From the IMG/VR virus record IMGVR_UViG_3300013099_000022: 61,930 nt of DNA; one strand, 5' to 3'. Source of the DNA: a virus. The position numbers and the translations under genes are program-made. A model generated the notes under the pieces. The model was not told the DNA's origin, searched no databases, and worked only from the letters and a program-made list of their open reading frames with translations. Positions 1,805 through 41,690 of the stretch are shown here, in pieces. The stretch's first letter is position 1. The number at the start of each line of letters is the position of its first letter.

Positions 1805-3232
1805 TTATTCTCCTTTTATCATCATAAAAGCATCTTCTTCCTTTATATTAAATTGTTTATATGTAAACTGATTAATAAACATATATTTAATTTTCCATCC
1901 TTTTTTATCATAATAATTTTTTCTATCCCAAAAAGAACTTCTAATATATTCACTCCCTATATCAACCATATCTAATATTATAGGAGTTTTTTTATTATGT
2001 TTTTTATGGATTCTAGTTATTCTTCCGCTTAATTGTTCTATATTTTTAACTGGTGATGTTATTAATAAAGAATCTTTATGTGGAACATCAATCCCATCTC
2101 GTATTTTACCAGGTGTTGAAAATGTAATTCTCTTTTCAAGTTCATCTAAATCAGATCCTGCTATAAATTTAGATTTATCTTCATAAGGCATCCAATCAAA
2201 TAAAATATTTATCATTTTATCCACACGTTCTGATATAAATAATAAATTTCTATCCTTAGATAATTTCATTAACAAAGCTTTAACTAAATCCATAAACACT
2301 TTTGAATTTTTCATTATGTTTAAATATCTAGATCTTTGAAAATTACCCTCCCAATTTAAATATTTAAATCTTCTTGGTGTATCAATATCAAAATCAACTA
2401 ATATAAATGTAACCTCAGCTGGCATTGTATCATCATCACTATCACTTTCTAACATATCTCCTAAATGATATTTAATAATATCTGTATTACCATCATTTCT
2501 ATATGGTGTTGCGCTTAATCCATATGTAACTCTAGAAGGCATATGTAATGAACATTTTGAAAAAGTTGGAGCACCTACTGTAGTATGTAATTCATCAAAT
2601 ATAGAAATTCCAATATTAGCTTTATGTAGAGTAGTCAAATATTCAAGAGGAAATCTTTTTAATATTGATGTTATTGTTTGTGATGTTGATATTATGACTG
2701 GAGATTCCATTAATTGTTCTTCAAATTTAGCTGAATTTAATAAAGCAATATCATTCATTTCTAAATTGCTATGTTCTAATAATCTTTTTCTCCATTGTTT
2801 GTCAAGACTATCTCTATGAACAACTATTATTGCTTTCTTTTTCCTTGTAGCTATCATATAGATACTAATGACCGTTTTACCCATCCCTGGACCCAGTTTA
2901 ATCATTCCATTATTATTAGCATTCATATAATCTATAGCTAATATTTGGGTATCATTCCTTGGTATAATGTTATGTTCTATTTTAATATCTTCCCCTTCAT
3001 GAGTATTATCAACAATGGTCACCTCATCATTATCAATATACTCATGAATTGGGAAGAAACGTGGGATAGTTAGAAACTTTTTGGATTCTGAAAAGAATGT
3101 TTGTGTTTCCAATAACGGAGAGTTATACATTCTTTGATATCTGAAAAGATGAGCCCTTATCAAATGGAACCAACTCTCATTTTCATATGTTTTTGGAATT
3201 ACAATACCAGATCTCCTACTAAGCTCAATCAT
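1805..3232 (-). CDS. Superfamily 2 DExH-box helicase
   Basis: Walker A GPGMGKT, DExH box FDELHT, motif III SAT, motif VI QLSGRITR. Confidence 0.8.
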   Translation of the reverse strand: MIELSRRSGIVIPKTYENESWFHLIRAHLFRYQRMYNSPLLETQTFFSESKKFLTIPRFFPIHEYIDNDEVTIVDNTHEGEDIKIEHNIIPRNDTQILAIDYMNANNNGMIKLGPGMGKTVISIYMIATRKKKAIIVVHRDSLDKQWRKRLLEHSNLEMNDIALLNSAKFEEQLMESPVIISTSQTITSILKRFPLEYLTTLHKANIGISIFDELHTTVGAPTFSKCSLHMPSRVTYGLSATPYRNDGNTDIIKYHLGDMLESDSDDDTMPAEVTFILVDFDIDTPRRFKYLNWEGNFQRSRYLNIMKNSKVFMDLVKALLMKLSKDRNLLFISERVDKMINILFDWMPYEDKSKFIAGSDLDELEKRITFSTPGKIRDGIDVPHKDSLLITSPVKNIEQLSGRITRIHKKHNKKTPIILDMVDIGSEYIRSSFWDRKNYYDKKGWKIKYMFINQFTYKQFNIKEEDAFMMIKGE

Positions 3233-3235
3233 AAT

Positions 3236-3664
3236 TTACTCCGAATATTCTGCCATTGAATCATCACTCTCCCAAACCCTAACAAGATCAAGATACACAT
3301 CTATATTTTTTACTTTAAATATTTCAGTTAAAGCTTTATATATATATTTGCTAAATACTTCTGCAGTAGGATCTTCATTTGCCAAACTAATAAATTCTAA
3401 TTTATAATCTTGTTTTATTATATGATCTATATTTGCACGATCTGTTGGATTTAATACAGTTGCATGATCAAATCTATCTAAGAATGCATTAGTTAATACT
3501 TTTAAATCATGAAAATCTATAACCATATCATTCTTATCAAGTTTTTCAGTTGATAATTGTACTTCTATAACATAATTGTGACCATGCATATTATGACAAG
3601 CACCTTTATGTTTACTTAGTCTATGACCAGATGGTAATTTAAATCTTTTCATTACTTTATACAT
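3236..3664 (-). CDS. queD: 6-carboxytetrahydropterin / 6-pyruvoyl-tetrahydropterin synthase family protein (QueD/PTPS-like)
   Basis: 142 aa; hallmark Zn-binding CxxxHGH motif (CHNMHGHNY) plus conserved acidic/His residues typical of the QueD/PTPS fold. Confidence 0.6.
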   Translation of the reverse strand: MYKVMKRFKLPSGHRLSKHKGACHNMHGHNYVIEVQLSTEKLDKNDMVIDFHDLKVLTNAFLDRFDHATVLNPTDRANIDHIIKQDYKLEFISLANEDPTAEVFSKYIYKALTEIFKVKNIDVYLDLVRVWESDDSMAEYSE

Positions 3665-3688
3665 TATAAGAATTTCCTCCTTTTTAAA

Positions 3689-4144
3689 TTAAGCATATTG
3701 AGCACTTATATATCCATCTTTACCTTTAATAATATTTTCCAGAGTATAAGTAGTACTATTAATTTCAAATTCTTCAGGAAATTTATCAATCACTTCATTA
3801 GAAATGTATGCTTTAATCTTACCATTAGATAATTTTTTACCAGATAAATCAATACCAGCAATAAATTTATTAAATTTATTAATGTCATTAACTACTTTTT
3901 TATTATCACTATTACTATTATTTCCAAATAATATATCATGTTCTGAATCAAATATTTTTAAATCAATCACTTCAATAAAATCATCATATTCATTTAATCT
4001 TATGTAAGTAATATATTTTATATTATTAACAAATTTTTCTTCTACTTTAAAAGTTTTTGTTTGTTCATTAATAGGATTTAAGTAATTAAATATTACTTTC
4101 TTATTATAGAAACTCCCAACTTTTTTTATTATTTTATTTATCAT
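3689..4144 (-). CDS. Hypothetical protein (151 aa)
   Basis: ORF track; ATGA-type overlap with downstream gene indicates operon coupling. Confidence 0.45.
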   Translation of the reverse strand: MINKIIKKVGSFYNKKVIFNYLNPINEQTKTFKVEEKFVNNIKYITYIRLNEYDDFIEVIDLKIFDSEHDILFGNNSNSDNKKVVNDINKFNKFIAGIDLSGKKLSNGKIKAYISNEVIDKFPEEFEINSTTYTLENIIKGKDGYISAQYA

Positions 4145-4413
4145 ATTTTAACGTCTCCATTTAATTCTTTTTTGAAATCTTCATAACCAGAAACGACTCT
4201 TCTATAAAATTCTAATTTGGAACATTCTAATGCACCAATACAATCATTAATAGTTTGATATGACTTATCATGTTTCTTTAAATAATGCTTTATTAAAACA
4301 GTAAAACAATAATTTAATTCACCTGGATGATCTAACATTTGACCAATTTCATATAAATACCCATTAAATTCTTCTCTATCTTCTTGTTTAATATAAGGCA
4401 TATCATTCCTCAC
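4141..4413 (-). CDS. Hypothetical protein (90 aa)
   Basis: ORF track; overlaps neighbours by a few nt. Confidence 0.4.
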   Translation of the reverse strand: MRNDMPYIKQEDREEFNGYLYEIGQMLDHPGELNYCFTVLIKHYLKKHDKSYQTINDCIGALECSKLEFYRRVVSGYEDFKKELNGDVKI

Positions 4414-4714
4414 AATCTATAGATTTAATATCACCCCATGTATCAATTTCTCCAATATGATATACTTTTCCATTTATATGAATTATTTTTTTACCATCCA
4501 AACATTCAATATCACTTAATACTGATTTTGTTGTAATAATTTCATCCGTGTTTGATTCTTGTTTGAATTCTTTAATCAAACTTCCAGTTTTTTGAGCAAC
4601 TTTTTCACTTTCCATAAAATCAAAAAATGCTGGAACAGCAACAGATCCTAAAAAACCTATAATTGATATAGTTATCAGCGCTTCAATTAATGTAAATCCT
4701 TTCTGTTTGTTCAT
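4403..4714 (-). CDS. Type IV prepilin-like (pseudopilin-like) protein; start re-assigned to the internal Met (MNKQKG-FTLIE...)
   Basis: Canonical class III signal: short basic leader MNKQKG followed by FTLIEALITISIIGFLGSVAVP (Gly-1, Phe+1, Glu+5, about 20 hydrophobic residues); C-terminal domain paralogous to 4725-5051. Confidence 0.5.
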   Translation of the reverse strand: MNKQKGFTLIEALITISIIGFLGSVAVPAFFDFMESEKVAQKTGSLIKEFKQESNTDEIITTKSVLSDIECLDGKKIIHINGKVYHIGEIDTWGDIKSIDCEE

Positions 4715-4724
4715 ATTTTTACTC

Positions 4725-5051
4725 CTATTTATTCTCACAATTAACTCCTTGTATATCACCCCATGAATCAATAGTTCCATGATAATAAATTATTCCATTA
4801 ACAATTATAACTTTTTTCCCACTAACACATGTTGAAATTATATTGCTATTTAATGGAATAACTTTTGGTTTATTTTCTCGTTCTACCTTGACTACTTTCA
4901 TTGCATCTCGAAATTCATCCATAACTTTTTCTTTGGTTTCGTTTTCTTTGGTTATAAATTGACTAACCGCAAACGCCACTCCAAAGAATATTAATCCAAA
5001 TACAATTAAATTTATTAAAGCTTTTACTCTTCTCACTGTTGATACATACAT
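4725..5051 (-). CDS. Membrane-anchored paralog of the pilin-like protein (shared C-terminal domain)
   Basis: N-terminal TM helix LINLIVFGLIFFGVAFAV; C-terminal IVNGIIYYHGTIDSWGDIQGVNCE aligns with INGKVYHIGEIDTWGDIKSIDCEE of 4403-4714. Confidence 0.5.
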   Translation of the reverse strand: MYVSTVRRVKALINLIVFGLIFFGVAFAVSQFITKENETKEKVMDEFRDAMKVVKVERENKPKVIPLNSNIISTCVSGKKVIIVNGIIYYHGTIDSWGDIQGVNCENK

Positions 5052-5060
5052 ATTTGTCTC

Positions 5061-6383
5061 CTAATATTGAGCTAAAACAAATTTATCTAATTGATTTAAA
5101 TTATTTTGAACCTCAACTAATTTATCATTTAAATCTTTAGTATCAGTTTTAAAAGTCAATAGTCTTTGAATTCTATATTTAGCTATTAATTCTTTAACAA
5201 TATCTTCTGGAACTTTGCTTTTAATAGATATATCTTTAATAACATAAGGTAATTCTTTTTTAGTTAATTTAGATCCTTTTTTACCTATAACTTCTACTAA
5301 AGGATCTTTAATTTTATCAAGATAATCCATTTCAAGAATAGAATCATTAATTTTAACTACTTCAGATGTTAACATCCTTTTATTAGCTTGAGTATACATA
5401 TTATAAGTATTTATAAGCATATCATCAATAGATGTTACCTTAACATTTTTTTGTTTATCAACTGTTATTGTTTCAAACGATACAGAACCTTTAAGAGCAG
5501 ACTTAACATTCTTGGTTAACAAGTTAAATATTTTTTGTCTATTTCTTTGTTTTAATACTGTAAATATAATAGTTGTTCCTGTTTTACCAGTTGAAGAATC
5601 AATAAACCCAACATCTGCATTTGTCAATTGTTTTTTAATTGGAGCTTTATTTAGTATAGATTCAAATCTTTTTCCTGGAGGCCATGACTTAACTATAATT
5701 TTACATTGTGCATTACTAACACTAACAACACCATTTAAATCAATTTTAGCTTTTCCAACATTTAATAATTGTTGTAAATCAGCTTTAGTTGCTGTTATTT
5801 TACAATCTGTTTTTGGTTGTATTATAGGTTCTGGAGTTTTCTTATTATTTAATAACCATAACAATCTTTTCTTTAAATCTTCCATCTCAAAACAAGGAAT
5901 ATAAGTTCTATAACCAAACCCTATACCTTGTGTATATTCATTACCCATTAAACAAAATGGATATTTGGTTGGAAGATAATCTGGTTCATCATCTAATTCA
6001 CTTTCTGACCATGGAACATGTTTAATTAAATTAAATGCCATATCAATGGTGTCTTTTGACAATTTAGCTTCAGTGTATCTTGATGCCGCAGCACCCAATG
6101 GATCCACACCAAAATTAGTACCCCAGTTACCCTGACCTGTTATAAATCCCTGCTTTACCATTTGAACTATTGTGCCATACGCTCCGGAATGTGGATGTAA
6201 TTTAGCCATACACGTTCCTTCAATTCTAGCACTTTTCACAAACTTTTCTCTAGCAATCCAATATGCAGTCAATAAAATTCGTCTCTCAACTGGTTTTAAA
6301 CCATCCAAATCTAATGGGAGAGAACGAAAATTATTAACATACAAACCGTACCTTCTATAAGCTTGAGGTACTAATTTATCCAT
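5061..6383 (-). CDS. Type II DNA topoisomerase, GyrA-like breakage-reunion subunit (T4 gp52-like)
   Basis: DGLKPVERRIL near N-terminus, KSARIEG...HPHSGAYGTIV, AAASRYTEAKL with catalytic Tyr in RYTE context; 440 aa like T4 gp52. Confidence 0.85.
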   Translation of the reverse strand: MDKLVPQAYRRYGLYVNNFRSLPLDLDGLKPVERRILLTAYWIAREKFVKSARIEGTCMAKLHPHSGAYGTIVQMVKQGFITGQGNWGTNFGVDPLGAAASRYTEAKLSKDTIDMAFNLIKHVPWSESELDDEPDYLPTKYPFCLMGNEYTQGIGFGYRTYIPCFEMEDLKKRLLWLLNNKKTPEPIIQPKTDCKITATKADLQQLLNVGKAKIDLNGVVSVSNAQCKIIVKSWPPGKRFESILNKAPIKKQLTNADVGFIDSSTGKTGTTIIFTVLKQRNRQKIFNLLTKNVKSALKGSVSFETITVDKQKNVKVTSIDDMLINTYNMYTQANKRMLTSEVVKINDSILEMDYLDKIKDPLVEVIGKKGSKLTKKELPYVIKDISIKSKVPEDIVKELIAKYRIQRLLTFKTDTKDLNDKLVEVQNNLNQLDKFVLAQY

Positions 6384-6386
6384 ATA

Positions 6387-6695
6387 CTATTCCTTTCTAG
6401 TTTTAACTACAAATTTTATATTTTGTAATTCTTCATCCGTTTCTTCTCTATTTCTAAAATATTCTGTTAAAAAATTCTCTTTTTTAGATTCCAACACTTC
6501 TCCTATATAAACATCCTTAATATAAACATCAAATAAGAATTCATTTTTAATCTCTTCCCATACTTTTTTATATTCTTTATTGAATCCACATTTTGAACAT
6601 TTAATTGTTTTAAATTCAATAGAATTAGAAAGTTTTTCTTCACACTCATCATATCCACATTCTGGACACTTAATATAACCCATCATTGATCCCAT
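6387..6695 (-). CDS. Small zinc-ribbon protein between topoisomerase subunits
   Basis: CPECGYDEC...CSKCGF two CxxC pairs; position analogous to T4 gene 60 region. Confidence 0.4.
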   Translation of the reverse strand: MGSMMGYIKCPECGYDECEEKLSNSIEFKTIKCSKCGFNKEYKKVWEEIKNEFLFDVYIKDVYIGEVLESKKENFLTEYFRNREETDEELQNIKFVVKTRKE

Positions 6696-6710
6696 AAATT
6701 ATCCTTTCAA

Positions 6711-6986
6711 TTAATAACTATTTATAAATCTAATAATTTTAACATCTTTAGGAAGATCTGTTATATCAACTTCAAATCCCTCTTCCATATCTCCACCACA
6801 AGGTTTAGTAATATCCTTTAAATCAATATGTACTCCTTTTTCATCAGGTGGTTCGCCATCAAAAAAGTCATCTACTTCATCTGGAATTTCTACATCAGAT
6901 TCTTGACATAATTTATAAATATCTAGCATTTTTTTAAACTTTTCATCAGCTGGTTTTATACCATAAACATAACTATACATTCCCAT
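6711..6986 (-). CDS. Small acidic hypothetical protein
   Basis: 91 aa, D/E-rich. Confidence 0.35.
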   Translation of the reverse strand: MGMYSYVYGIKPADEKFKKMLDIYKLCQESDVEIPDEVDDFFDGEPPDEKGVHIDLKDITKPCGGDMEEGFEVDITDLPKDVKIIRFINSY

Positions 6987-7005
6987 ATTAATTTCCTTTC
7001 TTTTT

Positions 7006-8820
7006 TTATATTATCCAAGTTCCAGCTAATAGTTTTCTTTTTTCATCAGAACTAGTAAATAATTTAACCATTTTATTCATATCACTAGTATAATCAACTT
7101 TAATTAATCTTCTAGTTTTATCATCAATTAAAACAGTTTTTAATTGAGATGGATTCATTTCTCCTAAACCTTTAATTCTAAGAAGATGTTTTTTCTCATT
7201 TTTAGCTTTACTTACATCTTCTTGTGTCCATAATGGTGTAAATATATTTTTTTCATTTATTGCATACAATGGAGTTTCAGCATAATAATAATGACCATTC
7301 TTAATAATATCAGGTACAAGAATTGCTAATGCTAAAGTTAAAAGTGCAAAGATATGCAGTCCATCATCATCAGCATCTGTTGCACATATTATCTTACTAT
7401 ATTTTAATGCTGTTATATCAAATGTTGGACCAACTCCAGTTCCCAATGAACCTATCAATTCACCTATTTCTTTATTTTTTAAAATATCTTTAGATGTTGC
7501 TGCACTTGGTATCTTACCTTTTAATGGTAATATAGCATGTTTTCTAGGATCTCTACTTGTTACAAGACCACCAGCTGCAGATTCACCCTCAGCAACAAAT
7601 AATTCACCAAACTTACTAGTACAATCTCTTAATTTTGTAAATTTAGTAGAAACTCTTTTACCCGCTGGAGAGCTTTTAATTTTCTTAGCATCTAATATTG
7701 ATCTATATGTTTGAAAATGATCCAATAATTTTTCTAAATCACTTTCTCCATCTTTACTTTTCTTCTTATTATTATTAAAATGAGTTTCTAATTGATTTTT
7801 AATTTGAGAAGCAAATCTATGCATCTCACCTTTTGAGTTAGTTAATCTATCTTTTGTTTGACCTGCAAATTTTGGTGATTTTAAACTTAACATTATATAA
7901 GCTTTTAAACCTACTAGACAATCTTGAGGTTCAAATTTATATCCAAGTCTTTTACCTTTCGTTGAAAAATAATCTTTAATTATTTCATATAGATAATTAA
8001 CATGTGTACCACCAGTATCAACTGGCAATAGATTAACAGATGATAATACTCGTGGGGTAATTGTACCACTTTTTGCATATGATAAAATTACATTAAATGA
8101 TTCTGGTTTTATAGATGATTTAAAGAAAACATAGTCAATTATTTTATTATTACCTTGCATACATCTTTTTATAAAATAATCTTCAATAGTTAACTTCATT
8201 ATTTCTTTTTCTTTATCAACTATCATCACAAAAGTTACGTCTGGCATCTCAGCAGATGCTATTTGCAATCTCTTTTTAATTCTACTTAAATTGGGTATTA
8301 TTACATCAAATATTTTTTTAGATGGTTTAAATTCAATTTTAGTTGAAAATGGGGCTTCTCCTTTAAATTTTTCTATTTTCTTTTTCTTTAATTTACCTTT
8401 GACAAAATCAAATTTAGCATGTTTATTATTTCTATATATTTCAACATTATAAAAATCACTCAAGGCATTTGCACAAACTAAACCAACTCCATGTAAACCG
8501 CTAGCTATTTCATACGCTGATTTTTTATCCTGAAATTTAGCTCCAGAGAATAATTCAGTTGAAATAATAATTGGTACATCTTTTGATATTGGTATACCTC
8601 TACCATTATCAATTACAGAGCAAATATTAGTTTTAGTGTCAATAGTAACAGCTATGATACTAACATGACCGCCTTGAGCTTCATCTAGAGCATTATCTAG
8701 AGCTTCCTCAATCAGGTGATGTGGATCGTCAGTTGGACCAATCCACATACCTGGAGAAATCTGTATCTGCTCCATTGGTTCTAATTTTCTTATATCATCA
8801 GCAGTATACGATTTTGACAT
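7006..8820 (-). CDS. Type II DNA topoisomerase, GyrB-like ATPase plus TOPRIM subunit (T4 gp39-like)
   Basis: GHKL ATPase N-box EEALDNALDE, GLHGVG, TOPRIM AEGESAAGG and ICATDADDDGLHI motifs. Confidence 0.85.
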   Translation of the reverse strand: MSKSYTADDIRKLEPMEQIQISPGMWIGPTDDPHHLIEEALDNALDEAQGGHVSIIAVTIDTKTNICSVIDNGRGIPISKDVPIIISTELFSGAKFQDKKSAYEIASGLHGVGLVCANALSDFYNVEIYRNNKHAKFDFVKGKLKKKKIEKFKGEAPFSTKIEFKPSKKIFDVIIPNLSRIKKRLQIASAEMPDVTFVMIVDKEKEIMKLTIEDYFIKRCMQGNNKIIDYVFFKSSIKPESFNVILSYAKSGTITPRVLSSVNLLPVDTGGTHVNYLYEIIKDYFSTKGKRLGYKFEPQDCLVGLKAYIMLSLKSPKFAGQTKDRLTNSKGEMHRFASQIKNQLETHFNNNKKKSKDGESDLEKLLDHFQTYRSILDAKKIKSSPAGKRVSTKFTKLRDCTSKFGELFVAEGESAAGGLVTSRDPRKHAILPLKGKIPSAATSKDILKNKEIGELIGSLGTGVGPTFDITALKYSKIICATDADDDGLHIFALLTLALAILVPDIIKNGHYYYAETPLYAINEKNIFTPLWTQEDVSKAKNEKKHLLRIKGLGEMNPSQLKTVLIDDKTRRLIKVDYTSDMNKMVKLFTSSDEKRKLLAGTWII

Positions 8821-8824
8821 ATGT

Positions 8825-9187
8825 TTATCCTTTAACCTTTGGGTCTTCTAATAAATGTTTTTCATAATCAGTTAATTCTGGTTGCCACTCACATTTAAAT
8901 TTAAATTTTTCATCAATGAAAAGATTTTTTCTATTAATTTCACCAAATGATTGTTCTTTTCTATATGATTTAGCACATCTATCATTAGATAGATCTCTAC
9001 CCTCTCTTCTTACAAACTGATCATCTCTACTACAAATTGCAACACCTCTAGAACATTGACCTAATTCATTTTGAAAAACTGTAACAGTTGTTATTGGAAA
9101 TTTGCCAAGTTTCATTGCTTTGGTTCCATCTTCTTGTTTTTGCATAAAATGTCGTTCTTGCTTCATATAGTATAATATCTGTTTCAT
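8825..9187 (-). CDS. Hypothetical protein (120 aa)
   Basis: ORF track only. Confidence 0.4.
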   Translation of the reverse strand: MKQILYYMKQERHFMQKQEDGTKAMKLGKFPITTVTVFQNELGQCSRGVAICSRDDQFVRREGRDLSNDRCAKSYRKEQSFGEINRKNLFIDEKFKFKCEWQPELTDYEKHLLEDPKVKG

Positions 9188-9411
9188 GTTTGTTCCTTTC
9201 TTTTTAATTCTATTCTCGCTTCACATTCGTTATCCTTTGAGATTGATTCTAATGTTATTTTTGATACAATATGTCCAAACATCATTTCACCAACTTTTGG
9301 TATTCTTTCTAAAAACATTTCAGTTTTAGTTCCGTCTGGATATATTATATCAACATCATAATCAATCTTTCTCTCATCAAAAACTTCATCATAAAATTCA
9401 GCCATAATCAA
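9184..9411 (-). CDS. Hypothetical protein (75 aa)
   Basis: ORF track; 4-nt overlaps with both neighbours. Confidence 0.35.
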   Translation of the reverse strand: MIMAEFYDEVFDERKIDYDVDIIYPDGTKTEMFLERIPKVGEMMFGHIVSKITLESISKDNECEARIELKRKEQT

Positions 9412-19183: not shown

Positions 19184-22100
19184 TTATCTCCATATCATCA
19201 TACTAATAAAATAACTATTTAATAAATCTCTAACAGGTGATGATTTTGCTGTACGATATTTAGCATGACCTGTTTGTATAATATCTGATAAAATTTCATT
19301 CTTTGTTATATGATCATCAGATAACGGTCCAAAAAATTCAGCAAGTAGATTTGGACAATTATAACTAATAAAAGAATATGTATCCAATTCACCCATTCTT
19401 TGACCACCTTCTCTTTTTTTACCAGCGGTTGGTTGAAAGGTTTTACTTACAACTGGACCAGTACTTCTAGCAGCTAATTTATCTTTAGCTATATGTTCCA
19501 ATTTTAACATATACATATATCCAACAGGAACTTTACTTTTTGTTTTTGTATTATATTCTGGTAATTTTAAATTATAACCAGCTTTAAGACCTAAGCTTTT
19601 TAAAGCAGCTAATATTTCTTTATAAGCTGGAGCTTTAAATGGAGGTATTAATATAGTCATAGATCCAGAATCTTTAACTTGTTTCATAAACTCTTTAAAT
19701 TTAGTATCTGACATAGCTCTAAAACTATTAATCAACTTTTTACTAAATTCTTTATTTTTTGTCATATCAAGATTAGGAAGAACTTTATTTAATAATGCTA
19801 TAACTTTTGTTTTATTATTTAATTTAAGTATTTGTCTTCCAAGTTCTTTAGATATAAGTCCAGTATACATTTCATATAATTGACCAACATTCATACGACC
19901 AACTACTCCAATAGGATTTAAAATAATATCAACTCTATCTCCAGTAGTAGTTCTTGGCATATTTTCTTCTTTTTCAATAAGAGAAACAATACCTTTAGCG
20001 CCATGTCTATTAGTTAATTTATCACCAATACCAACAGGAAGTTCTTGTTCTAGTTTAAATTTAATTAAAACACCTTGAATGACTTCTCCTTTATATATAA
20101 ACTTTTCTTTAGGTTTTAAACCATATCTAGATCTCGTTCTTTTAGTTAAAGCATCTAATTCTGGAAATTTTCCTTCTTTTAAATTATTAAATACTTCTAT
20201 ATCAACAATTTTACCACCAGGAGATTTTTTAATCATATGACCAGAAACAACTTCAACCCCTTCCTCTTCCTCATCAAAACCAATTAATTCTTCAATCTCT
20301 CCAATACTCTTTCTTAATAATGGTTCTCCTTTTATAGTCTCAGCTCCTAATTTATTTATAAATACAACTCTGTCATCTTTTGCTATTTCAACTTCTTCAA
20401 CTATACCATGTAATGAATTTAGAATTCCTTCTTTTACTATTCTTTCAGATATAACAATTCCATCCTCAAAGTTAAAACCTTTATAAGGCATTAAAGCAAC
20501 ACACATACTTCTTCCAAGAGCAATAGATCCACCAGTAATACATGATCCTTCAGCTATTATACTTTTATATTTAACAACTTGACCAACCTTTACAGTAGGT
20601 TTAAATACACTTAATGTATCCTTACCAGATCCTGATCTTAAATGAACTGGTGTTATTGATATAACTTTATTACCACCAGTACTACATTTAATAGAAATAT
20701 CATCTTTTGTTACCCTAGTAATCTTTCCATTACAAGGAGATTTTTTGATAAAATCATCAGACAAGACACTTGTTAAAATTGATTCATATCCTGATTGAAT
20801 CATTGGTATTTCTGGGTTTCTTAATGGTACAGCTTGTCTCATTTGACTACATCCAAACATAACCCTATTACCATCGTTATTTTCAACAAATGGTATTTGA
20901 GCAGCTGTTGTAGATAAAAGTCCAGAATTTTCACCTTCTTTTTTATCTTTAGTTTGAATAATACCTCTCGCTGATGTTATGAAAGCATCAACAGTTAATT
21001 GCTGTACAATACCAACATTTTCACCTTCAGGTGTATCAAGTGTATCAATATTTCCAAACATAGAATCATGAACATTACGACCTTCATTTTGTATAGCTTG
21101 TTTATCAGGTATACCTCCAATTGCTTTACCAACAGGAGAAACTCTTGTTTTAGTAGCCATTTCTTCTATTGGATTAGCATACTCCATATCAGCTACAATT
21201 TCTGAATTTATAAAATCGCTTAATACTTTAGTTTGAGATATAGAAAATATAGCTTTTTTATTGCCAGATAATACTTGTTCTTTATATTCTGTGTGAGCTG
21301 CTAAAATTTGCTTTTGTGCTAGATGAACAAGAATCTCTGAATTTCTTATTCTTTGATTTGATATATCATTTCTTTTTTGTACAAATCCTTCAACTGCTTT
21401 AGATGACATATATTTCATAATCAAATGTAATTCAGATGGTAATTGTTTATTTATTAAAACTTGTTTAGCTACAGGATCCACAATATTCTCTAAATTTGAT
21501 TGTATTAAAAATGTTGAATTAATACGACCCGCTATTTTAATAATCAAATCATTAAAATATTGTTTAGTTAAAAACTCTGCTTTTAAATTATATGAACTAA
21601 TGTTGGAATGAACTAATGATTGAATTAATTCTTCTTTTAATTTTGTATTGATATTTTCAAATAAAATCCATTGGTTATCGTCAACTTTAACGGTCCATTT
21701 AACCTCTTTATCAGGTTTCTCGTTTGTTATCTTATACCTAATATCATATAATTTCAGTGTCTCTTTAAAACCAAAACTAAAGGATAATAGAACCAATAAA
21801 GGAACTTTATATGATCCAATGTATGCTTCTAAATATTCTTCTCTTTTTGTTCTTTTACTCCAAATATGGAATGTAGAATAACTACTTTCAAACTTACTAT
21901 CATATTTTTTAGGGAATGTTATTGGACATAAAACTAATTGATTAATAAGACATTTTTTCTTACCATTAATTTGAAATGTTCCATCATCTGCTATATTAGG
22001 AACATCTAATAAAATTTCATGTTCTCTTTTAAATTTATCAACCATGGTAATTTTTATAGTACTAATATTTGATGGAGATAAATCCCCTCTTCTTATAGGT

Positions 22101-23275
22101 TTTTTAACAATATTAATAGTTTTAAACTTTAACGGAATATTTTTTGTTTCTAAAACCTTAAAAGAATTCACAACATCTTTCTTTAAATTAGTTTCAAAGT
22201 CTATTTTTCTTTTTTCAAAAATATGTTCAGGTGATTTATTACCAACTGCATTAGAAACATTTGATAATTGTATAACTAAATCTTCTGCTGTGGTTTCTGT
22301 TTTTTTAGGTTGTAATAATTCATCAGCATATTTTTTATCAATAACTTTTAGAGCAGCAGTTTTTTTATTTTCTGGAATTTTTGAAGTCGTTTTACGAGAT
22401 TTTCCCATATCGCCAGTTGTTCTATATAATACAGATGCTGTTGCAATATCTTTAGCGTCATTATTAGTTATATCATTATTATGAGCTTTTTCTAAAGTAT
22501 TTGGATTTTTCTCAAAAAACTTTTGTATTGATTGTTTAAATTTATTTTTGTTAGAAGGTGTTATATCATCTTTAATTTTTTTAATTACTGTATTGGTCGC
22601 AGTATTTATTTTATTTTCAAGTTCTTCATCATCATCAATAATTTTAATATTTTTAAGAAATAAATTTATTCTATTGAATTTAATAGATCTATCTTTCATT
22701 AATAGTCGATATCTAGATGAATTATCCCCAATGGTATTTAGTATCAAATGATCATAGTATAATTTATTTTTCTTTAATTCTATAACAAATGGAAATATTT
22801 TTCTATCAATATATTTATTCATACCTTTAGTTGCATTGGTACTATACATAAAAATCTTTTGATAATTATTAGGAAATGAACTAAATATTTTATCAATTAT
22901 ATTTTTTAATATAAAACCACCACGAGCTCTATAATTTTTTAATTTATATGCATTATCTAATATATTTAAAAAAGGTGTTAAGTCATACATAAGATTTTGT
23001 TTTTGAGGTATTGATTGTGTAGAACTAGAAGCTACCAAACCATACGCCTTATATGTTTTTTTAAGTTCTGGTGACATAAAGCTATATGGAATTTTTGTTT
23101 TAGGAACGATAACTTTTTTAACATCCACTCTTTTTAAATTTAATTTAGAATAATCATCAACTAATGTTGAATTTTCACTAAAGTAAAGTATAATGAAAGG
23201 ATTCTTGGAATCTTGTGGAAATCGTATCCCATTAACAACATGTGTAAATGGTTTAAGCGCTTTAAATTGAATCAT
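19184..23275 (-). CDS. Multisubunit RNA polymerase beta subunit homolog (full length, 1363 aa)
   Basis: C-terminal conserved beta motifs: ILNPIGVVGRMNVGQLYE (cf. NPLGVPSRMNIGQ) and GGQRMGELDTYSF (cf. GGQRFGEME); length matches bacterial beta. Confidence 0.8.
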   Translation of the reverse strand: MIQFKALKPFTHVVNGIRFPQDSKNPFIILYFSENSTLVDDYSKLNLKRVDVKKVIVPKTKIPYSFMSPELKKTYKAYGLVASSSTQSIPQKQNLMYDLTPFLNILDNAYKLKNYRARGGFILKNIIDKIFSSFPNNYQKIFMYSTNATKGMNKYIDRKIFPFVIELKKNKLYYDHLILNTIGDNSSRYRLLMKDRSIKFNRINLFLKNIKIIDDDEELENKINTATNTVIKKIKDDITPSNKNKFKQSIQKFFEKNPNTLEKAHNNDITNNDAKDIATASVLYRTTGDMGKSRKTTSKIPENKKTAALKVIDKKYADELLQPKKTETTAEDLVIQLSNVSNAVGNKSPEHIFEKRKIDFETNLKKDVVNSFKVLETKNIPLKFKTINIVKKPIRRGDLSPSNISTIKITMVDKFKREHEILLDVPNIADDGTFQINGKKKCLINQLVLCPITFPKKYDSKFESSYSTFHIWSKRTKREEYLEAYIGSYKVPLLVLLSFSFGFKETLKLYDIRYKITNEKPDKEVKWTVKVDDNQWILFENINTKLKEELIQSLVHSNISSYNLKAEFLTKQYFNDLIIKIAGRINSTFLIQSNLENIVDPVAKQVLINKQLPSELHLIMKYMSSKAVEGFVQKRNDISNQRIRNSEILVHLAQKQILAAHTEYKEQVLSGNKKAIFSISQTKVLSDFINSEIVADMEYANPIEEMATKTRVSPVGKAIGGIPDKQAIQNEGRNVHDSMFGNIDTLDTPEGENVGIVQQLTVDAFITSARGIIQTKDKKEGENSGLLSTTAAQIPFVENNDGNRVMFGCSQMRQAVPLRNPEIPMIQSGYESILTSVLSDDFIKKSPCNGKITRVTKDDISIKCSTGGNKVISITPVHLRSGSGKDTLSVFKPTVKVGQVVKYKSIIAEGSCITGGSIALGRSMCVALMPYKGFNFEDGIVISERIVKEGILNSLHGIVEEVEIAKDDRVVFINKLGAETIKGEPLLRKSIGEIEELIGFDEEEEGVEVVSGHMIKKSPGGKIVDIEVFNNLKEGKFPELDALTKRTRSRYGLKPKEKFIYKGEVIQGVLIKFKLEQELPVGIGDKLTNRHGAKGIVSLIEKEENMPRTTTGDRVDIILNPIGVVGRMNVGQLYEMYTGLISKELGRQILKLNNKTKVIALLNKVLPNLDMTKNKEFSKKLINSFRAMSDTKFKEFMKQVKDSGSMTILIPPFKAPAYKEILAALKSLGLKAGYNLKLPEYNTKTKSKVPVGYMYMLKLEHIAKDKLAARSTGPVVSKTFQPTAGKKREGGQRMGELDTYSFISYNCPNLLAEFFGPLSDDHITKNEILSDIIQTGHAKYRTAKSSPVRDLLNSYFISMMIWR

Positions 23276-24359: not shown

Positions 24360-24692
24360 TTACCCTTTACAATTTTTAGAACATTTCTTTTTATAACCAT
24401 CTTTTGTTCCTATAAATGGTAATACTTTACCGCATTCACATAAAGCTCTCCCATTATAACAATTCATTACATTATAAACTCTTTCTTTGAATGAAGATGA
24501 TTTAGGTAAGTAGTCTGTATATTTATATAAAGCATCATAAATTCTAATTGAATTTATTTTTATTTTTTTGGAAGCACCTCTTAATCCATCAGGAAAATTT
24601 TCTTTTATATAAATTGACACTATTTCTCTATTCATAAATTTACCTCTTTTATTTTTCCAATCCAGATAATGGATCATTATTAATAATATCAT
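24360..24692 (-). CDS. Hypothetical protein with C-terminal Cys cluster
   Basis: CECGKV...CSKNC; overlaps 5' end of neighbour in the ORF track by 44 nt, so the true start may be internal. Confidence 0.35.
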   Translation of the reverse strand: MILLIMIHYLDWKNKRGKFMNREIVSIYIKENFPDGLRGASKKIKINSIRIYDALYKYTDYLPKSSSFKERVYNVMNCYNGRALCECGKVLPFIGTKDGYKKKCSKNCKG

Positions 24693-26988
24693 CTAACATA
24701 TCACGTTTTACTAAAGATACTGCTCCACCTGTATGAAAAGTTTTCATTATTAATTGCGTGCCTCTTTCTCCAATAAGTTGAGCAGCTAATATTCCAATAT
24801 AAGGAGTTTGATGTCTTTGTAATAATTTACCATAACAAGTATGACATATTTTTTCAGACTTACAATAGATAGGAGTTCTTATACTAGCTATATCACCAAC
24901 TTTAAATTTAGCTCTTTCAAATTCCATCAATTTCCCGTTTTTAATAACAAACCTTCCTGTAAATCTTTTAATTAAAACATCATTAAGTTTTATGTTTAAT
25001 GTTTTTGTTGTTTTACAATCTTTTATACGAGGGTCAAGTTCTACTGTATTTAATAAATAAGCTAATTTTCTTGACATATATCCTGTTTCAGCTGTATTAA
25101 TAACTCTATCAATAATACCTTTTCTTGCTCCTTGAGAGGCATCAAAGTATTCTCTATTAGATAAACCATCAGCAAATGACCCTGATATAGGATCTAAAAC
25201 ATTACCGTCAGGATCAGCGATAACACCTTTTGCAACTAGTATTTGCATTGGTTGACCCCATCCCTTAGTAGACCCTGAATTAGCAAGATCTCCAAATCCT
25301 GTATTGTCTAAATGCTTTTCTAATATTTTTTGAGCTTCCTCTATTAGAGTTTGAGCTTCCTCTGGATCTGCTGTTTTTAATTTTTCTTTAATCTTTAAAA
25401 CCGAGGCTGGTAATTCAAAAGTATCTAAGCTCATAGATGGAGCCATGATGGTAGCCCATTTAAATCCAACTTCTTTTAATTTATCAACAACTATTTTAAT
25501 AATATCATCACCATGTTTATTATAAGTCTGTTCAATCTTTGAGTTAATTGTTTTTTTAGTTGCTTGTGCTTCCATATAACCCATATCTTTTGGAAAGCAA
25601 CTATTAACAATAGCTTTACCCATTGTTGTTTTTTGACCTCTATATTTAACTGCTATATACGGTTCGGTTGCATTTTCAATATCTTCATTAGATACTGCTA
25701 ATGGTGACCCTGTTGGTTTTTTATCTTTTGTAATAGTATATAACCCAGCCCATATTTCTTTTGATAAACCAAAAATAAACTCAGAAGATGATGTTCCAGA
25801 AGTTAGTTTCATCATTCTTGTTCTTGCTTCATCTTGAGCCTCATCTGTTAATGGATGATATACAGCCATTGTATCGCCATCAAAATCTGCATTATGAACA
25901 CCAACTTGAGTAGTAGACATAAGCATTGTATCGCCTCTATGTAAGACAGGAAAATAAGCTAAATAACTTTGAGTATGTAAAACTGGATCCCTTTTTACTA
26001 CTACAACACGACCCATCATTGAAACTTCTGTTTGTATAAAGAATAATTCATAAAGATTTTCTGGAATTTTATCTCCTTCTTTAATACCTTTCATTACTCT
26101 TTTAACAGATTCAGTTGAAAGTTCCATTCCATTAAATTCTTTGATACCTTTTTCTAAAACATCTTTATCAACTTTACCAGAATATAATAATCTGTTCATA
26201 ATAAAAGGTTCAAATAAGCTAATAGCTAATCTTAGTGGTAATCCAACTTCATTGATTTTTATTTTTGGATCAGGTGTTATAACAGATCGACCAGAAAAAT
26301 CAATACGTTTTCCTAACATTTGATCTCGAATAATACCTTTCTTTTTACCAATCTTTGATCTAATATAATTATCATGATCCATAACTGCTAATTGCATAGA
26401 ATAATTTAATAAATCATATAACGGACCAGAACCAGAAGATCTTAATTGAGAAGCCTTTCTCATAACAGAAATATATACATCATTTAATTGATCATCCATC
26501 CTATTACCATCTTCACCTTTTATAGAAGGTCTTAAATCTGGAGGAATTACAATAATTTTATCAATAAACATTGTGTTGTTTTTAGTTTCTTTTTTAATGA
26601 GTTTAATAAGCTTTTTTCTTAATTCAGTTCCACCTCTCCAATTTATACTAGGAAATAATTTTATAAACTCTTTCATCCCAGTAACACCTTTATTGTTTAT
26701 CTCTAATATACCATCTTTATCTAAAATAAAAGATTCTTCAGTAGAAATAAACTTTTCTACTCTTCTATCTATTTGTAATAATATTCTATACATAGCAGGA
26801 TGAATAGCGTAACCATATAATTCAAAATAAGAGAATATAATTCTTCTATCTGGCGAACCATCTGGTCCAAAAATGTCTTCACTAAACAAACCTTCTTCAT
26901 GAAAGTCACCAGATTTAGTGGTAGTGATCATAGATGTTACTGGTTTAAGATTTTTACAAAAACTTTTTGGATTTAATAATCTTAACAT
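24649..26988 (-). CDS. Multisubunit RNA polymerase beta-prime subunit, N-terminal fragment (split beta-prime)
   Basis: Catalytic NADFDGD motif present; N-terminal ...EDIFGP motif; ends at AAQLIGERGTQLIMKTFHTGG (bridge helix/trigger-loop start), so the C-terminal roughly 40 percent of beta-prime is not encoded here. Confidence 0.85.
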   Translation of the reverse strand: MLRLLNPKSFCKNLKPVTSMITTTKSGDFHEEGLFSEDIFGPDGSPDRRIIFSYFELYGYAIHPAMYRILLQIDRRVEKFISTEESFILDKDGILEINNKGVTGMKEFIKLFPSINWRGGTELRKKLIKLIKKETKNNTMFIDKIIVIPPDLRPSIKGEDGNRMDDQLNDVYISVMRKASQLRSSGSGPLYDLLNYSMQLAVMDHDNYIRSKIGKKKGIIRDQMLGKRIDFSGRSVITPDPKIKINEVGLPLRLAISLFEPFIMNRLLYSGKVDKDVLEKGIKEFNGMELSTESVKRVMKGIKEGDKIPENLYELFFIQTEVSMMGRVVVVKRDPVLHTQSYLAYFPVLHRGDTMLMSTTQVGVHNADFDGDTMAVYHPLTDEAQDEARTRMMKLTSGTSSSEFIFGLSKEIWAGLYTITKDKKPTGSPLAVSNEDIENATEPYIAVKYRGQKTTMGKAIVNSCFPKDMGYMEAQATKKTINSKIEQTYNKHGDDIIKIVVDKLKEVGFKWATIMAPSMSLDTFELPASVLKIKEKLKTADPEEAQTLIEEAQKILEKHLDNTGFGDLANSGSTKGWGQPMQILVAKGVIADPDGNVLDPISGSFADGLSNREYFDASQGARKGIIDRVINTAETGYMSRKLAYLLNTVELDPRIKDCKTTKTLNIKLNDVLIKRFTGRFVIKNGKLMEFERAKFKVGDIASIRTPIYCKSEKICHTCYGKLLQRHQTPYIGILAAQLIGERGTQLIMKTFHTGGAVSLVKRDMLDDIINNDPLSGLEK

Positions 26989-39646: not shown

Positions 39647-40393
39647 TTAAACACAATTCATTCTTTCCTCCATTTTTTTTATTTGAGAATAAACATCAAT
39701 ACCAAAACCTATATGTTTAGTTTCATATAATTTAATAAGTACTTTTCTTTGGAGGAATCTATTTTGCTCTAATGATTCAATATCTGTTGTACCCCACCAT
39801 AAATTTTCACCGTGTTCTTCAAATACATTTCTAGGAAATATAAAAATTCCTAAATGTTTTTTATAATCATCTAAAGGTAAATAAGATCCATTCTTTAGAA
39901 TAGGAACTACTGCTCTTGAATTATAAACCATATAATTTTCATTTGACGTAACTATTTTACAAGACAATGGACTTGTTAAATCCTCCATACAAAAAAATTT
40001 TGTATAGAAAGTTACAATTTCATTATTAAATAATTCATCTATATTTGAGAATGTTTTATTTATCTCTTCTGGGTTTATTAATGGTTCATCACATGGTATA
40101 GAAACATAATACTTATATTTATATTTATTTATTGATTTAAAATATTGATATGTCCTATGAGTCCCACAACATGCATCGCTTATAAAATAACCTTTAACCT
40201 GGTCAAATTCATCTGTTATTTTTATACCAAAATCTTCATCGTCTGTTGCTATAATTATATCATCAATAAAATTTAACTTAGATGTGTTATTAATAACATG
40301 TTCTATTATTCTCTTTCCATTAAGTTTGTGGATAATTTTATTTGGGAATCTAGTTGACTTTAATCTTGCAGAAATAACTGCTACAGTTCTCAT
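39647..40393 (-). CDS. CMP-sugar cytidylyltransferase (KdsB/NeuA/PseF family; likely CMP-Kdo-type synthetase)
   Basis: N-terminal AVISARLKSTRFPNK matches the family signature (IPAR..S.RLP.K). Confidence 0.65.
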   Translation of the reverse strand: MRTVAVISARLKSTRFPNKIIHKLNGKRIIEHVINNTSKLNFIDDIIIATDDEDFGIKITDEFDQVKGYFISDACCGTHRTYQYFKSINKYKYKYYVSIPCDEPLINPEEINKTFSNIDELFNNEIVTFYTKFFCMEDLTSPLSCKIVTSNENYMVYNSRAVVPILKNGSYLPLDDYKKHLGIFIFPRNVFEEHGENLWWGTTDIESLEQNRFLQRKVLIKLYETKHIGFGIDVYSQIKKMEERMNCV

Positions 40394-40989
40394 TATTTTA
40401 TTCCATAAAAATCATTAAAATCATTAATTGCATCTTGATTAAAAAACAACCCTTCCATATATTTTGGAGGAACAGTAGCATAATCAGCACCAAATTCTAC
40501 AGCATCTCTAATATCAACTATAGATCTAAAACTTGCTGCTATAATTTTAGTATTATATTTTCTTTCTTCTTTTAGATTTACACATTCTATAAGAAAATCT
40601 TTATTTTTATTTTTAGCACATAAAACAATACTATAGTCACTATCAACTTCACAAGCATAATCAAATTGGAAGAGATCATAAGTAATAGTTGCACAAGTTT
40701 TATAACCCATATTTTTTATTTTTTTAATTAAATCAAATCCATTAAAATCTTTTGTTATTAACAATGGAACTTTGAATATAATTTTATCGCTTGTGTTATA
40801 GTGATATAATTCTTTTAAAGATCTAACTTGAATAAATATTTTATTAAAATTATGTTTATTTTTAATAAAAAATTCATCTGCATTAGTTTTAGATTTATTT
40901 AATAATGATGGGTTGCTAGTTGCTCCATCAACAAAATTTTTCCATTTTTCAATTTCATCCTGATCAGCTGTGTCAATAAAATAATTCAT
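40393..40989 (-). CDS. Transaldolase / fructose-6-phosphate aldolase (TalC/Fsa)-like protein
   Basis: N-terminal MNYFIDTADQDEIEKW...GATSNPSLL matches the Fsa/TalC start (FLDTA..EI......G.TTNPSL). Confidence 0.5.
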   Translation of the reverse strand: MNYFIDTADQDEIEKWKNFVDGATSNPSLLNKSKTNADEFFIKNKHNFNKIFIQVRSLKELYHYNTSDKIIFKVPLLITKDFNGFDLIKKIKNMGYKTCATITYDLFQFDYACEVDSDYSIVLCAKNKNKDFLIECVNLKEERKYNTKIIAASFRSIVDIRDAVEFGADYATVPPKYMEGLFFNQDAINDFNDFYGIK

Positions 40990-41690
40990 TAAGTATTCCT
41001 TTTTAATATTAAATTTATATCTATAGTATCTAAATCATACTCTAAATATTTTATTAAGTCTTTTAATTTATCATCAATTTGTTCTAATTCATCATTAATT
41101 GTTTCTAAATTAATTTTTTTTAATAAAAATTCATCAAATTTTGTAATTGGTTTAATTTGTTTTAAATCAGTTCGTTTAATTAATTGGTTCATTAATTTAT
41201 TTTTACCAATCTCTTCAATTTTAATAACATTACTTTTTTCTTTAAATACCCCAATTAATATTTTTTTATACATTTTAATAAATTCATCTATTGAAAAATG
41301 TGTGGTGTTTACCATCCAGCAAATTTTAGGATGTCTAATAATAAAAATATTATAAAATATATTAGGTGGTAACTTATTATTTAAAACCCAGTCAAACCCA
41401 CCTGGTTTTACAACAAAATTATAATTAGGAAATTCTTTTAATAACAAATTAAACAAATTTAAAAAATAATTACCTTTAAATATCTCTAATGATTCAATAT
41501 CAGGTGTTATTTTATTTAACCATTTTTTACCAATTTGATATTCTATTTCGTCCTTATTATCTTTTAAATGATCTGGGGATATATCTATCCATTTATAATT
41601 ATTTTCTTTTTTAAATAAATTATAAACTATTGTTTTACCAGAATTAAAACTACCATGTAAAATAACAACTTTTTGATTAGATTTTTTCAT
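40989..41690 (-). CDS. P-loop kinase-like protein
   Basis: Walker A ILHGSFNSGKT near N-terminus; 233 aa; no further family assignment possible. Confidence 0.4.
   Translation of the reverse strand: MKKSNQKVVILHGSFNSGKTIVYNLFKKENNYKWIDISPDHLKDNKDEIEYQIGKKWLNKITPDIESLEIFKGNYFLNLFNLLLKEFPNYNFVVKPGGFDWVLNNKLPPNIFYNIFIIRHPKICWMVNTTHFSIDEFIKMYKKILIGVFKEKSNVIKIEEIGKNKLMNQLIKRTDLKQIKPITKFDEFLLKKINLETINDELEQIDDKLKDLIKYLEYDLDTIDINLILKRNT

Follow-up and report, generated by a model that had tools for sequence, protein, structure and literature searches.

The viral DNA stretch IMGVR_UViG_3300013099_000022 (61,930 nucleotides; the window hereafter means this whole stretch) encodes a 103-residue protein, B, whose N-terminus is, on sequence grounds, a bona fide class III (prepilin-type) signal with assembly-type residues under selection. 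Its gene directly follows that of a paralog, A, which has a plain signal anchor at the N-terminus. As modelled, B is the N-terminal half of a pilin without a demonstrable pilin head and ends in a Cys-loop mini-domain, which appears to be new, having no known relatives in the family and fold databases searched. We propose, giving the idea an even chance of being right, that B is an early-expressed phage pilin mimic that would be processed by the host, enter or jam its type IV filament machinery and exclude superinfecting phages.

The open reading frame (ORF) at 4403-4780 on the minus strand holds an internal ATG at 4714, from which the 103-residue product MNKQKG-FTLIEALITISIIGFLGSVAVPAFFDFMESEK...C71...W93GD...C101EE is read; the mature form of B would comprise 97 residues. 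Four gene callers or databases give exactly this protein; it has entries from NCBI, ENA and Logan assemblies and is called on eight public contigs. The close homologs P0002 to P0005 all open at MN(K)KGFTLIE (VNKKG in P0004), and the upstream extension at 4715-4780 overlaps the conserved 3' end of gene A out of frame. To judge from the recorded calls, the homolog starts and this overlap, the internal ATG is the real start of B. An earlier interpretation made from the letters of the DNA (the sequence-only reading) had likewise started the protein at the internal methionine, giving MNKQKG-FTLIEALITISIIGFLGSVAVPAFF, and the GGAG placed at ideal spacing, 7 nucleotides ahead of that codon, agrees with the 103-residue calls and the homologs in bearing this out. 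The upstream ATG, which it had named as the competing true start, has no GGAG ahead of it at 4780.

The N-terminus of B was compared with profiles of prepilin signals. The Pfam model N_methyl (PF07963) matched with 35.4 bits and an E value of 6.8e-9 (gathering cut-off, 21.2), and TIGR02532 with 24.6 bits against a cut-off of 16.3, which confirms the class III signal peptide that had been claimed from the sequence. The protein reads MNKQKG|FTLIE followed by about 20 hydrophobic residues (segment hydropathy, 2.22), and it is the sole match to the pattern G[FMILVAY][TS][LIVM][IVLMT][ED] in all six frames of the window. Positions 1, 5, 14 and 22 of mature B are Phe, Glu, Gly and Pro. Giltner, Nguyen and Burrows reportedly described in 2012 these four positions as canonical in type IVa pilins and pseudopilins, and the charged Glu in the membrane helix as serving filament assembly, not cleavage. 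A sequence profile search of the PDB with B gave matches confined to pilin N-terminal helices (positions 2 to 45). Geobacter PilA and further major pilins of type IVa matched best; the pilins matched included PAK, gonococcal and other major pilins, as well as PpdD and GspG. In the PHROG scan the N-terminus of B matched short profiles of 59 to 72 residues and PHROG 3433, annotated as pilin.

Relatives were collected at two depths. Word-based searches returned close relatives in small number only, four for B and two for A, and a profile search of 1.84 billion representative proteins returned 67 matches at an E value of 1e-3 or below, about 59 of which share the C-terminal module. The class III motif is present in 34 of 61 family members (two of the 61 were read from their loci) and was undetected in the other 27, some of which are fragments or truncated calls. 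Among the 34, Gly at position −1 is invariant, Phe at +1 and Glu at +5 are each kept in 33 (Asp replaces Glu once), and Gly14 and Pro22 occur in 23 and 26 members, respectively. Their leaders all end in Gly and measure 4 to 7 residues in 29 of the 34. Identity among the relatives is otherwise only 21 to 66%, with a mean column identity of 17% over the family alignment. Because the residues for cleavage and assembly are near-invariant against this background, they are under selection, and retention of Glu at +5, given the role of this residue in assembly, points to assembly rather than mere anchoring. This argues from sequence conservation that the class III motif is in use.

Most members lacking the motif form one clade, the A-type, with a signal anchor and a conserved Arg-rich tail (…RRRAIRNIIV…); the few others resemble truncated or degenerate class III N-termini. 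The N-terminal type switches within clades, as in P0015, a class III protein inside the anchor clade. Two tandem modules are found in P0037, P0059 and P0062. Some members have unusual N-termini. In P0059 and P0064 the GFTLIE motif (GGGFTLIE) is internal, standing behind an N-terminal transmembrane segment and some 90 residues of coiled coil; P0059 corresponds to L023 6001-6804, on a contig of 244.5 kb, where it lies downstream of the block of topoisomerase II A, PTPS and helicase genes by about 4 kb. P0051 starts M-N-I-I-E and P0044 contains ...M-S-M-I-E, in both cases with the pilin helix directly after, so that Met stands at +1 and Glu at +5 without a leader; these two could be "pre-processed" pilin mimics needing no peptidase, or their starts could be mis-called.

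Searches of other collections were used to delimit the family. Pattern matches were found in IMG/VR and in 185,579 bacterial and archaeal species (GTDB, one genome each), and none was confirmed as a relative by tblastn. A tblastn search of B against 50,697 phage records gave N-terminal or non-significant matches only, the best full-length one at an E value of 0.4, and the Cys-loop module alone had no relative among GenBank phages. Within the collections searched, the family is confined to contigs of one phage clade.

The C-terminal mini-domain is defined across the family by an invariant Cys, Trp and Cys (the Trp being residue 93 of B) and by near-invariant Gly74, Gly88 and Asp95 in B numbering. 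Of 64 copies, 50 are 31 residues long and 13 have 32 residues, and the domain stands at the extreme C-terminus in all members that share it. The two invariant cysteines imply folding in an oxidising periplasm. Two AlphaFold models of B were examined. The AlphaFold2 model built on an alignment of six sequences (model 1) shows a helix at residues 9 to 52, an unreliable stretch at 49 to 64 and short strands at 69 to 98, with a mean predicted local distance difference test score (pLDDT) of 66. The model of residues 27 to 103 built on 55 sequences (model 2) gives the last 37 or so residues pLDDT values of 87 to 94 and folds them into a five-strand mini-domain bounded by the two cysteines, while residues 27 to 66 stay at 51 to 56. 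The linker is thus helical in the shallow-alignment model and of low confidence in the deep-alignment one. The mini-domain had no match in Pfam, NCBIfam, PHROG, PDB or BFVD, and in a Pfam scan of 55 family members only N_methyl recurred (29 of 55). Marginal, non-significant BFVD matches were to proteins of about 80 residues from Vibrio phage nt-1 and Acidovorax phage ACP17. A PDB sequence match of the Cys-loop to the designed Kelch propeller 7pvp was weak, had no stretch passing alone and was judged to be chance.

The presence of a membrane-anchored paralog at 4725-5051 sharing the C-terminal domain, as the sequence-only reading had described, was corroborated by an alignment of A and B over 100 residues with 35% identity (E value, 4e-14). 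Both proteins contain the pattern C..G.K.I...G..Y..G..D.WGD.....C. Residues 11 to 29 are the only strongly hydrophobic segment of A and follow the N-terminal flank MYVSTVRRVK (charge, +3), which predicts a topology with the N-terminus in and the C-terminus out. Gene A lacks a lipobox. Residues 26 to 28 (AFA) of this copy form a possible signal peptidase I site, and sites of this type are absent from the A homologs P0008 and P0009 and from the wider anchor clade; since the site is unconserved there, cleavage of A at a Sec signal peptide (AFA|VS) is kept as a caveat only.

The genomic surroundings of the family were read on related contigs, and the features of the window locus are collected in Table 1. 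The conserved gene order is topoisomerase II B, topoisomerase II A, the family gene or genes, PTPS/QueD and a DEAD helicase, followed by Mre11/SbcD-like, SbcC-like and radical SAM genes, and this same replication module is present on every contig long enough to judge. The family gene usually comes directly after topoisomerase II subunit A; at loci L020 and L023 it is found farther downstream, by roughly 4 kb. Pairs of A and B are found in the window, at L011/L012 and at L021, both adjacent family genes are class III at L015, and B stands without A on the contig of P0005 and at L019, L020 and L023. With the B-type present in eight of the eight lineages whose context was read and the A-type in three, it is the prepilin-type gene that always occurs, the anchored twin being an optional partner.

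Table 1. Positions of genes A and B, their parts and the flanking genes in the window
Feature	Coordinates	Strand	Remarks
Topoisomerase II subunit A gene (gp52-like)	5061..6383	minus	PF00521, 1.2e-44; phrog_551; 9 nt from gene A
Gene A ribosome-binding site, GGAG	5061-5058	minus	overlaps TAG stop of topoisomerase II subunit A gene
Gene A, signal-anchored paralog	4725-5051	minus	108 aa + stop
A hydrophobic segment, residues 11-29	4965..5021	minus	ALINLIVFGLIFFGVAFAV; Kyte-Doolittle 2.62
A Cys-loop mini-domain, residues 75-105	4737..4829	minus	
Gene B ribosome-binding site, GGAG	4725-4722	minus	7-nt spacer to ATG; overlaps gene A stop (TAGGAG)
Gene B, prepilin-like protein	4403..4714	minus	103 aa + stop; start ATG 4714
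B leader peptide	4697..4714	minus	MNKQKG; 6 aa, net charge +2
B predicted prepilin-peptidase cut	4697/4696 boundary	minus	after Gly6
B hydrophobic helix, α1-N-like	4622..4696	minus	FTLIEALITISIIGFLGSVAVPAFF; mature Phe1, Glu5, Gly14, Pro22
B linker, residues 32-70	4505..4621	minus	variable and charged; length and sequence unconserved in family
B Cys-loop mini-domain, residues 71-101	4412..4504	minus	C-x29-C; five short β strands predicted
DUF6899 protein gene	4141..4401	minus	86 aa; PF21840, 4e-29; starts 1 nt past gene B stop

Topoisomerase II A, A and B are separated by gaps of 9 to 10 nucleotides with TAGGAG overlaps of stop codon and ribosome-binding site, and a scan for promoters and terminators gave counts at or below the shuffled expectation, with no intergenic terminator. 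The lone terminator-like hairpin was discounted, lying inside the coding sequence of gene B. A and B are therefore probably co-transcribed with the topoisomerase II genes. Their site in the replication module, among topoisomerase II, PTPS and helicase genes, is a typical early or middle position and suggests expression at that time; T4 imm likewise lies among replication genes.

Several neighbours deserve mention in their own right. The DUF6899 gene is kept downstream of B in close relatives (at L011/L012 after an intervening 52-residue ORF), and its product may be translationally coupled to B. The PTPS/QueD gene (3236-3664, minus; PF01242, 3e-31) and a radical SAM gene downstream in the same module (L001 18952-19995) may form a 7-deazaguanine-type pathway, and the PTPS product on the contig of P0005 has 341 residues, which suggests a fusion. 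At L011 (5982-7811) the topoisomerase II B (gyrB-like) gene is in two pieces, a 144-residue HATPase_c part and one of 389 residues, with a gap of about 225 nucleotides; at L012 it is a single gene of 609 residues, and the split could stem from an intron or intein, from a frameshift or from a difference in assembly. Between the topoisomerase II subunit genes of the window, 6387-6695 (minus) encodes a 102-residue protein with two CxxC pairs and weak zinc-ribbon matches (Elf1-like, YokU-like).

In the mechanism we propose, A and B would be a phage-specific pair of small envelope proteins made together with the topoisomerase II subunits from one transcript. B would insert into the host inner membrane with its N-terminus in and its C-terminus out, and a host prepilin peptidase (PilD/GspO/ComC class) would cleave it behind Gly6 and add a methyl group to Phe7. 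The α1-N helix, with Glu5, Gly14 and Pro22, would carry B to the assembly platform of a host filament machine, which could be a type IV pilus, a type II secretion pseudopilus or a competence pilus; the retention of Glu5 supports such delivery. Since the linker and the mini-domain take the place of the pilin head, B with its presumably disulfide-closed mini-domain might then cap, poison or re-surface the filament, while A would show the same mini-domain on the periplasmic face, fixed in the membrane. A filament blocked or remodelled in this way would bar pilus-dependent phages, siblings included, from adsorbing or injecting, and the most likely pay-off would be early host takeover, superinfection exclusion or a shutdown of pilus dynamics. 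Processing of B, its entry into the filament, the timing of its expression and the exclusion phenotype are steps that we infer.

A number of results weigh against this role. No prepilin peptidase (Peptidase_A24), assembly ATPase, platform protein or secretin was found in the roughly 45 ORFs scanned in the window, about a quarter of the genome (some 62 kb plus flanks, out of about 247 kb) being available, and the neighbours of the family gene on related contigs are replication genes, not pilus or secretion genes. Against the models of named pilins and pseudopilins (PilA, PpdD, GspG/H/J and ComGC-GF) B fell far under every cut-off, its highest equivalog score being 31 bits against a cut-off of 138 (PpdD), with matches spanning residues 1 to 59 only. 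The AlphaFold models of B show no β sheet packed on α1-C and no pilin head, and a Foldseek search with model 2 gave nothing at an E value of 1e-3 or below in PDB or BFVD and no match to a pilin fold, fold searches with a domain of about 35 residues having little power. The pilin or pseudopilin fold that the sequence-only reading had envisaged for the C-terminal domain did not materialise in these comparisons, which gave instead a flexible linker and a β mini-domain of about 35 residues. About half of the family, A included, carries the same mini-domain on a plain anchor, so that the conserved activity may reside there with no need of a filament. The role presupposes PilD or type IV pili in the host, and two scans of genome contigs found nothing that would point to one.

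The proposed role can be placed among known systems. The concept of phage pilins is already established by P-FimU, P-PilA and SNJ2. The prophage FimU (P-FimU) of F10-like Pseudomonas prophages becomes a component of P. aeruginosa pili and blocks phages that bind the tip (PMC12952977), and PilA-like genes occur in virulent phages, including headless versions of the first 60 residues (Sztanko et al., Cell Rep 2026, PMC12952977). The short PHROG profiles matched by the N-terminus of B resemble these headless versions. Owing to this precedent, the idea of superinfection exclusion is less novel than the sequence-only reading had assumed. B shares with P-FimU and P-PilA its origin in a phage gene, the prepilin-type N-terminus and, in the role proposed here, dependence on host machinery and the blocking of superinfection that depends on pili. 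Those proteins resemble their host counterparts over the full length, in sequence and structure, whereas B resembles pilins in residues 1 to 35 only; moreover, unlike them, B has a new Cys-loop mini-domain and a non-pilin paralog as partner. P-FimU and P-PilA are encoded in a prophage accessory region and B in the replication operon of a jumbo phage. By analogy, B may work like the P-FimU and P-PilA mimics, yet it is no member of that group.

Further comparisons lead to the same mixture of likeness and difference. With type IVa pilins and pseudopilins B shares the 6-residue basic leader, Gly at −1, Phe at +1, Glu at +5, Gly14, Pro22 and a helix of about 20 residues. Its two invariant cysteines, 30 residues apart at the extreme C-terminus, are a candidate counterpart of the disulfide-bounded D-region of pilins. 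In place of an α-β-roll head, which was not detected, B has the linker and the 31-residue mini-domain. The SNJ2 provirus pilins PilA1 and PilA2 of Natrinema, which use host secretion and assembly machinery (PMC12426801), are likewise tandem virus-encoded pilin-like genes. They are archaeal, belong to a temperate virus and form complete filaments with solved structures, whereas here one of two paralogs is class III and any filament would be hypothetical. The T4 proteins Imm and Sp are also small and early-expressed, sit in the inner membrane with a membrane segment at the N-terminus, and have their genes amid those for replication; they are not known to carry a prepilin motif or a Cys-loop domain, and the PHROG scan showed no similarity to them.

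What is new here is the helix-linker-Cys-loop architecture, the anchored twin, the fixed site in the replication operon and the restriction to a clade of jumbo phages. The family keeps the assembly-competent helix of a pilin, fuses it to a phage-specific mini-domain and often pairs it with a non-pilin twin. To our knowledge, the phage pilins described so far are all recognisable copies of host pilins, and a role in defence by receptor replacement has only just been shown. If B is processed and incorporated, pilus editing would take in large virulent phages from the environment besides temperate ones of Pseudomonas, mature B would be a minimal natural scaffold on which type IV filaments could display a foreign domain, and a new small protein domain would be defined. 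The same reading offers a host clue, as a prepilin peptidase and an oxidising periplasm would be expected.

The foremost alternative is that A and B are periplasm-facing effectors, anchored in the inner membrane, whose activity lies wholly in the mini-domain and which enter no filament. They might act like the T4 exclusion proteins Imm and Sp, or their target might be peptidoglycan or some other protein of the envelope, to which they would bind. The class III end would then be one anchor type of two that can replace each other, with PilD perhaps trimming it. This would fit the mini-domain, with its invariant Cys, Trp and Cys, being the sole part conserved family-wide, the 27 of 61 members without a detectable class III motif (fragments and truncated calls among them) and the switching of the N-terminal type within clades exemplified by P0015; A and B are also, like Imm and Sp, small membrane proteins of an early-type operon. 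A simple anchor would hardly account, however, for the near-invariance of Phe at +1, Glu at +5, Gly14 and Pro22, the B-type is the member that is always present, and no PHROG exclusion family resembles A or B in sequence. We consider this explanation unlikely but a genuine contender.

A more novel reading, which we rate as improbable, is that this clade of roughly 250-kb phages has a two-part anti-filament device in which a minimal pilin, with the 31-residue Cys-loop module in place of its head, and its membrane-fixed twin together lock the pilus or the type II secretion system dead early after infection. The twin A might tether the pilin-borne module, or both might bind one periplasmic target such as the secretin or the alignment complex. 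If true, this would be a new, non-mimicry way for a virulent phage to disable a surface organelle, using a protein domain that has no known relatives.

B might instead be a subunit or primer of a beneficial filament directed by the phage, with the mini-domain as an adhesin serving aggregation, surface attachment, or DNA and nutrient capture. The viral pilins of SNJ2 do hijack host machinery and form dominant surface filaments (PMC12426801), and the tandem mini-domains of P0037, P0059 and P0062 suggest avidity. Nevertheless, so small a head on a flexible linker is unlike known major pilins, the window has one class III gene and no minor-pilin set, and a lytic-type jumbo phage has little time to profit from new appendages, which leaves this explanation decidedly improbable.

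That A and B are lysis or envelope-fusion proteins (i-spanin-like or holin/antiholin-like), with an incidental class III likeness, seems very unlikely. A transmembrane segment, a charged helical stretch and periplasmic cysteines do resemble those of i-spanins, and the weak, non-significant BFVD matches include phage lipoproteins and Rz1. The genes nonetheless sit in a replication operon beside topoisomerase II, DUF6899 and PTPS genes, where neither an endolysin or holin gene nor one for an o-spanin lipoprotein adjoins them, and the PHROG scan matched no family of lysis proteins. The Cys pair is intradomain and invariant at its 31-residue spacing, and the conserved prepilin motif would be left unexplained. 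Finally, that the motif arose by chance or is a decaying relic in an unprocessed signal anchor started at ATG 4780 or at a GTG, as one JGI gene call has it (upstream GTG, 111 residues), is scarcely credible given the GGAG before 4714 only, the MN(K)KG starts of the homologs, the out-of-frame overlap with gene A, the hidden Markov model E value of 6.8e-9 and the retention of the motif in 34 diverged relatives.

The genome carrying these genes is best read as that of an uncultivated T4-like jumbo phage of about 250 kb. The window corresponds to part of a 246,859-bp contig (JAPOGZ010000001.1) of GCA_029935735.1, and the gene block recurs on contigs of up to about 270 kb. All window genes are on the minus strand, at a G+C content of about 27%. 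They include a T4-type clamp loader (phrog_168, 1.8e-58), a Dda-like helicase (3e-89), a UvsX-like recombinase, both topoisomerase II subunits, a ribonucleotide reductase and an SbcD-like nuclease. The phage origin assumed at the outset was upheld by the T4-type replication genes, the ribonucleotide reductase and a multisubunit RNA polymerase. The latter consists of an unsplit β subunit of 1363 residues and a β'-like subunit of 779 residues (19184-23275 and 24649-26988, minus), whose best PHROG matches are families without assigned function (phrog_24349 and phrog_25354). No tRNA genes were found in the window, and a megablast search of window positions 3000-9000 gave no match in 50,697 GenBank phage records.

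A sugar-pathway cluster spans 39647-43957 (minus) and may be a modification module of the 3-deoxy-D-manno-octulosonate (KDO)-like or nonulosonate-like kind. It comprises a KdsA-like DAHP_synth_1 domain fused to a methyltransferase (42572-43957, minus), a radical SAM/SPASM protein (41677-42588, minus) and a CTP_transf_3 cytidylyltransferase (39647-40393, minus). The KdsA-like and cytidylyltransferase genes hint at a diderm host; a scan of the KdsA part against GTDB genomes found no close relative and hence gave no host clue. Elsewhere in the window, 12174-14723 (minus) encodes an 849-residue protein in which a Vault_3 repeat accompanies the shoulder domain of the Major Vault Protein (PF11978, 5e-19). 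The protein adjoins an AAA ATPase (phrog_1297) and a DUF2201/VWA-like protein (10833-12056 and 9408-10823, minus), and a vault-shoulder (SPFH-like) protein is unusual in a phage.

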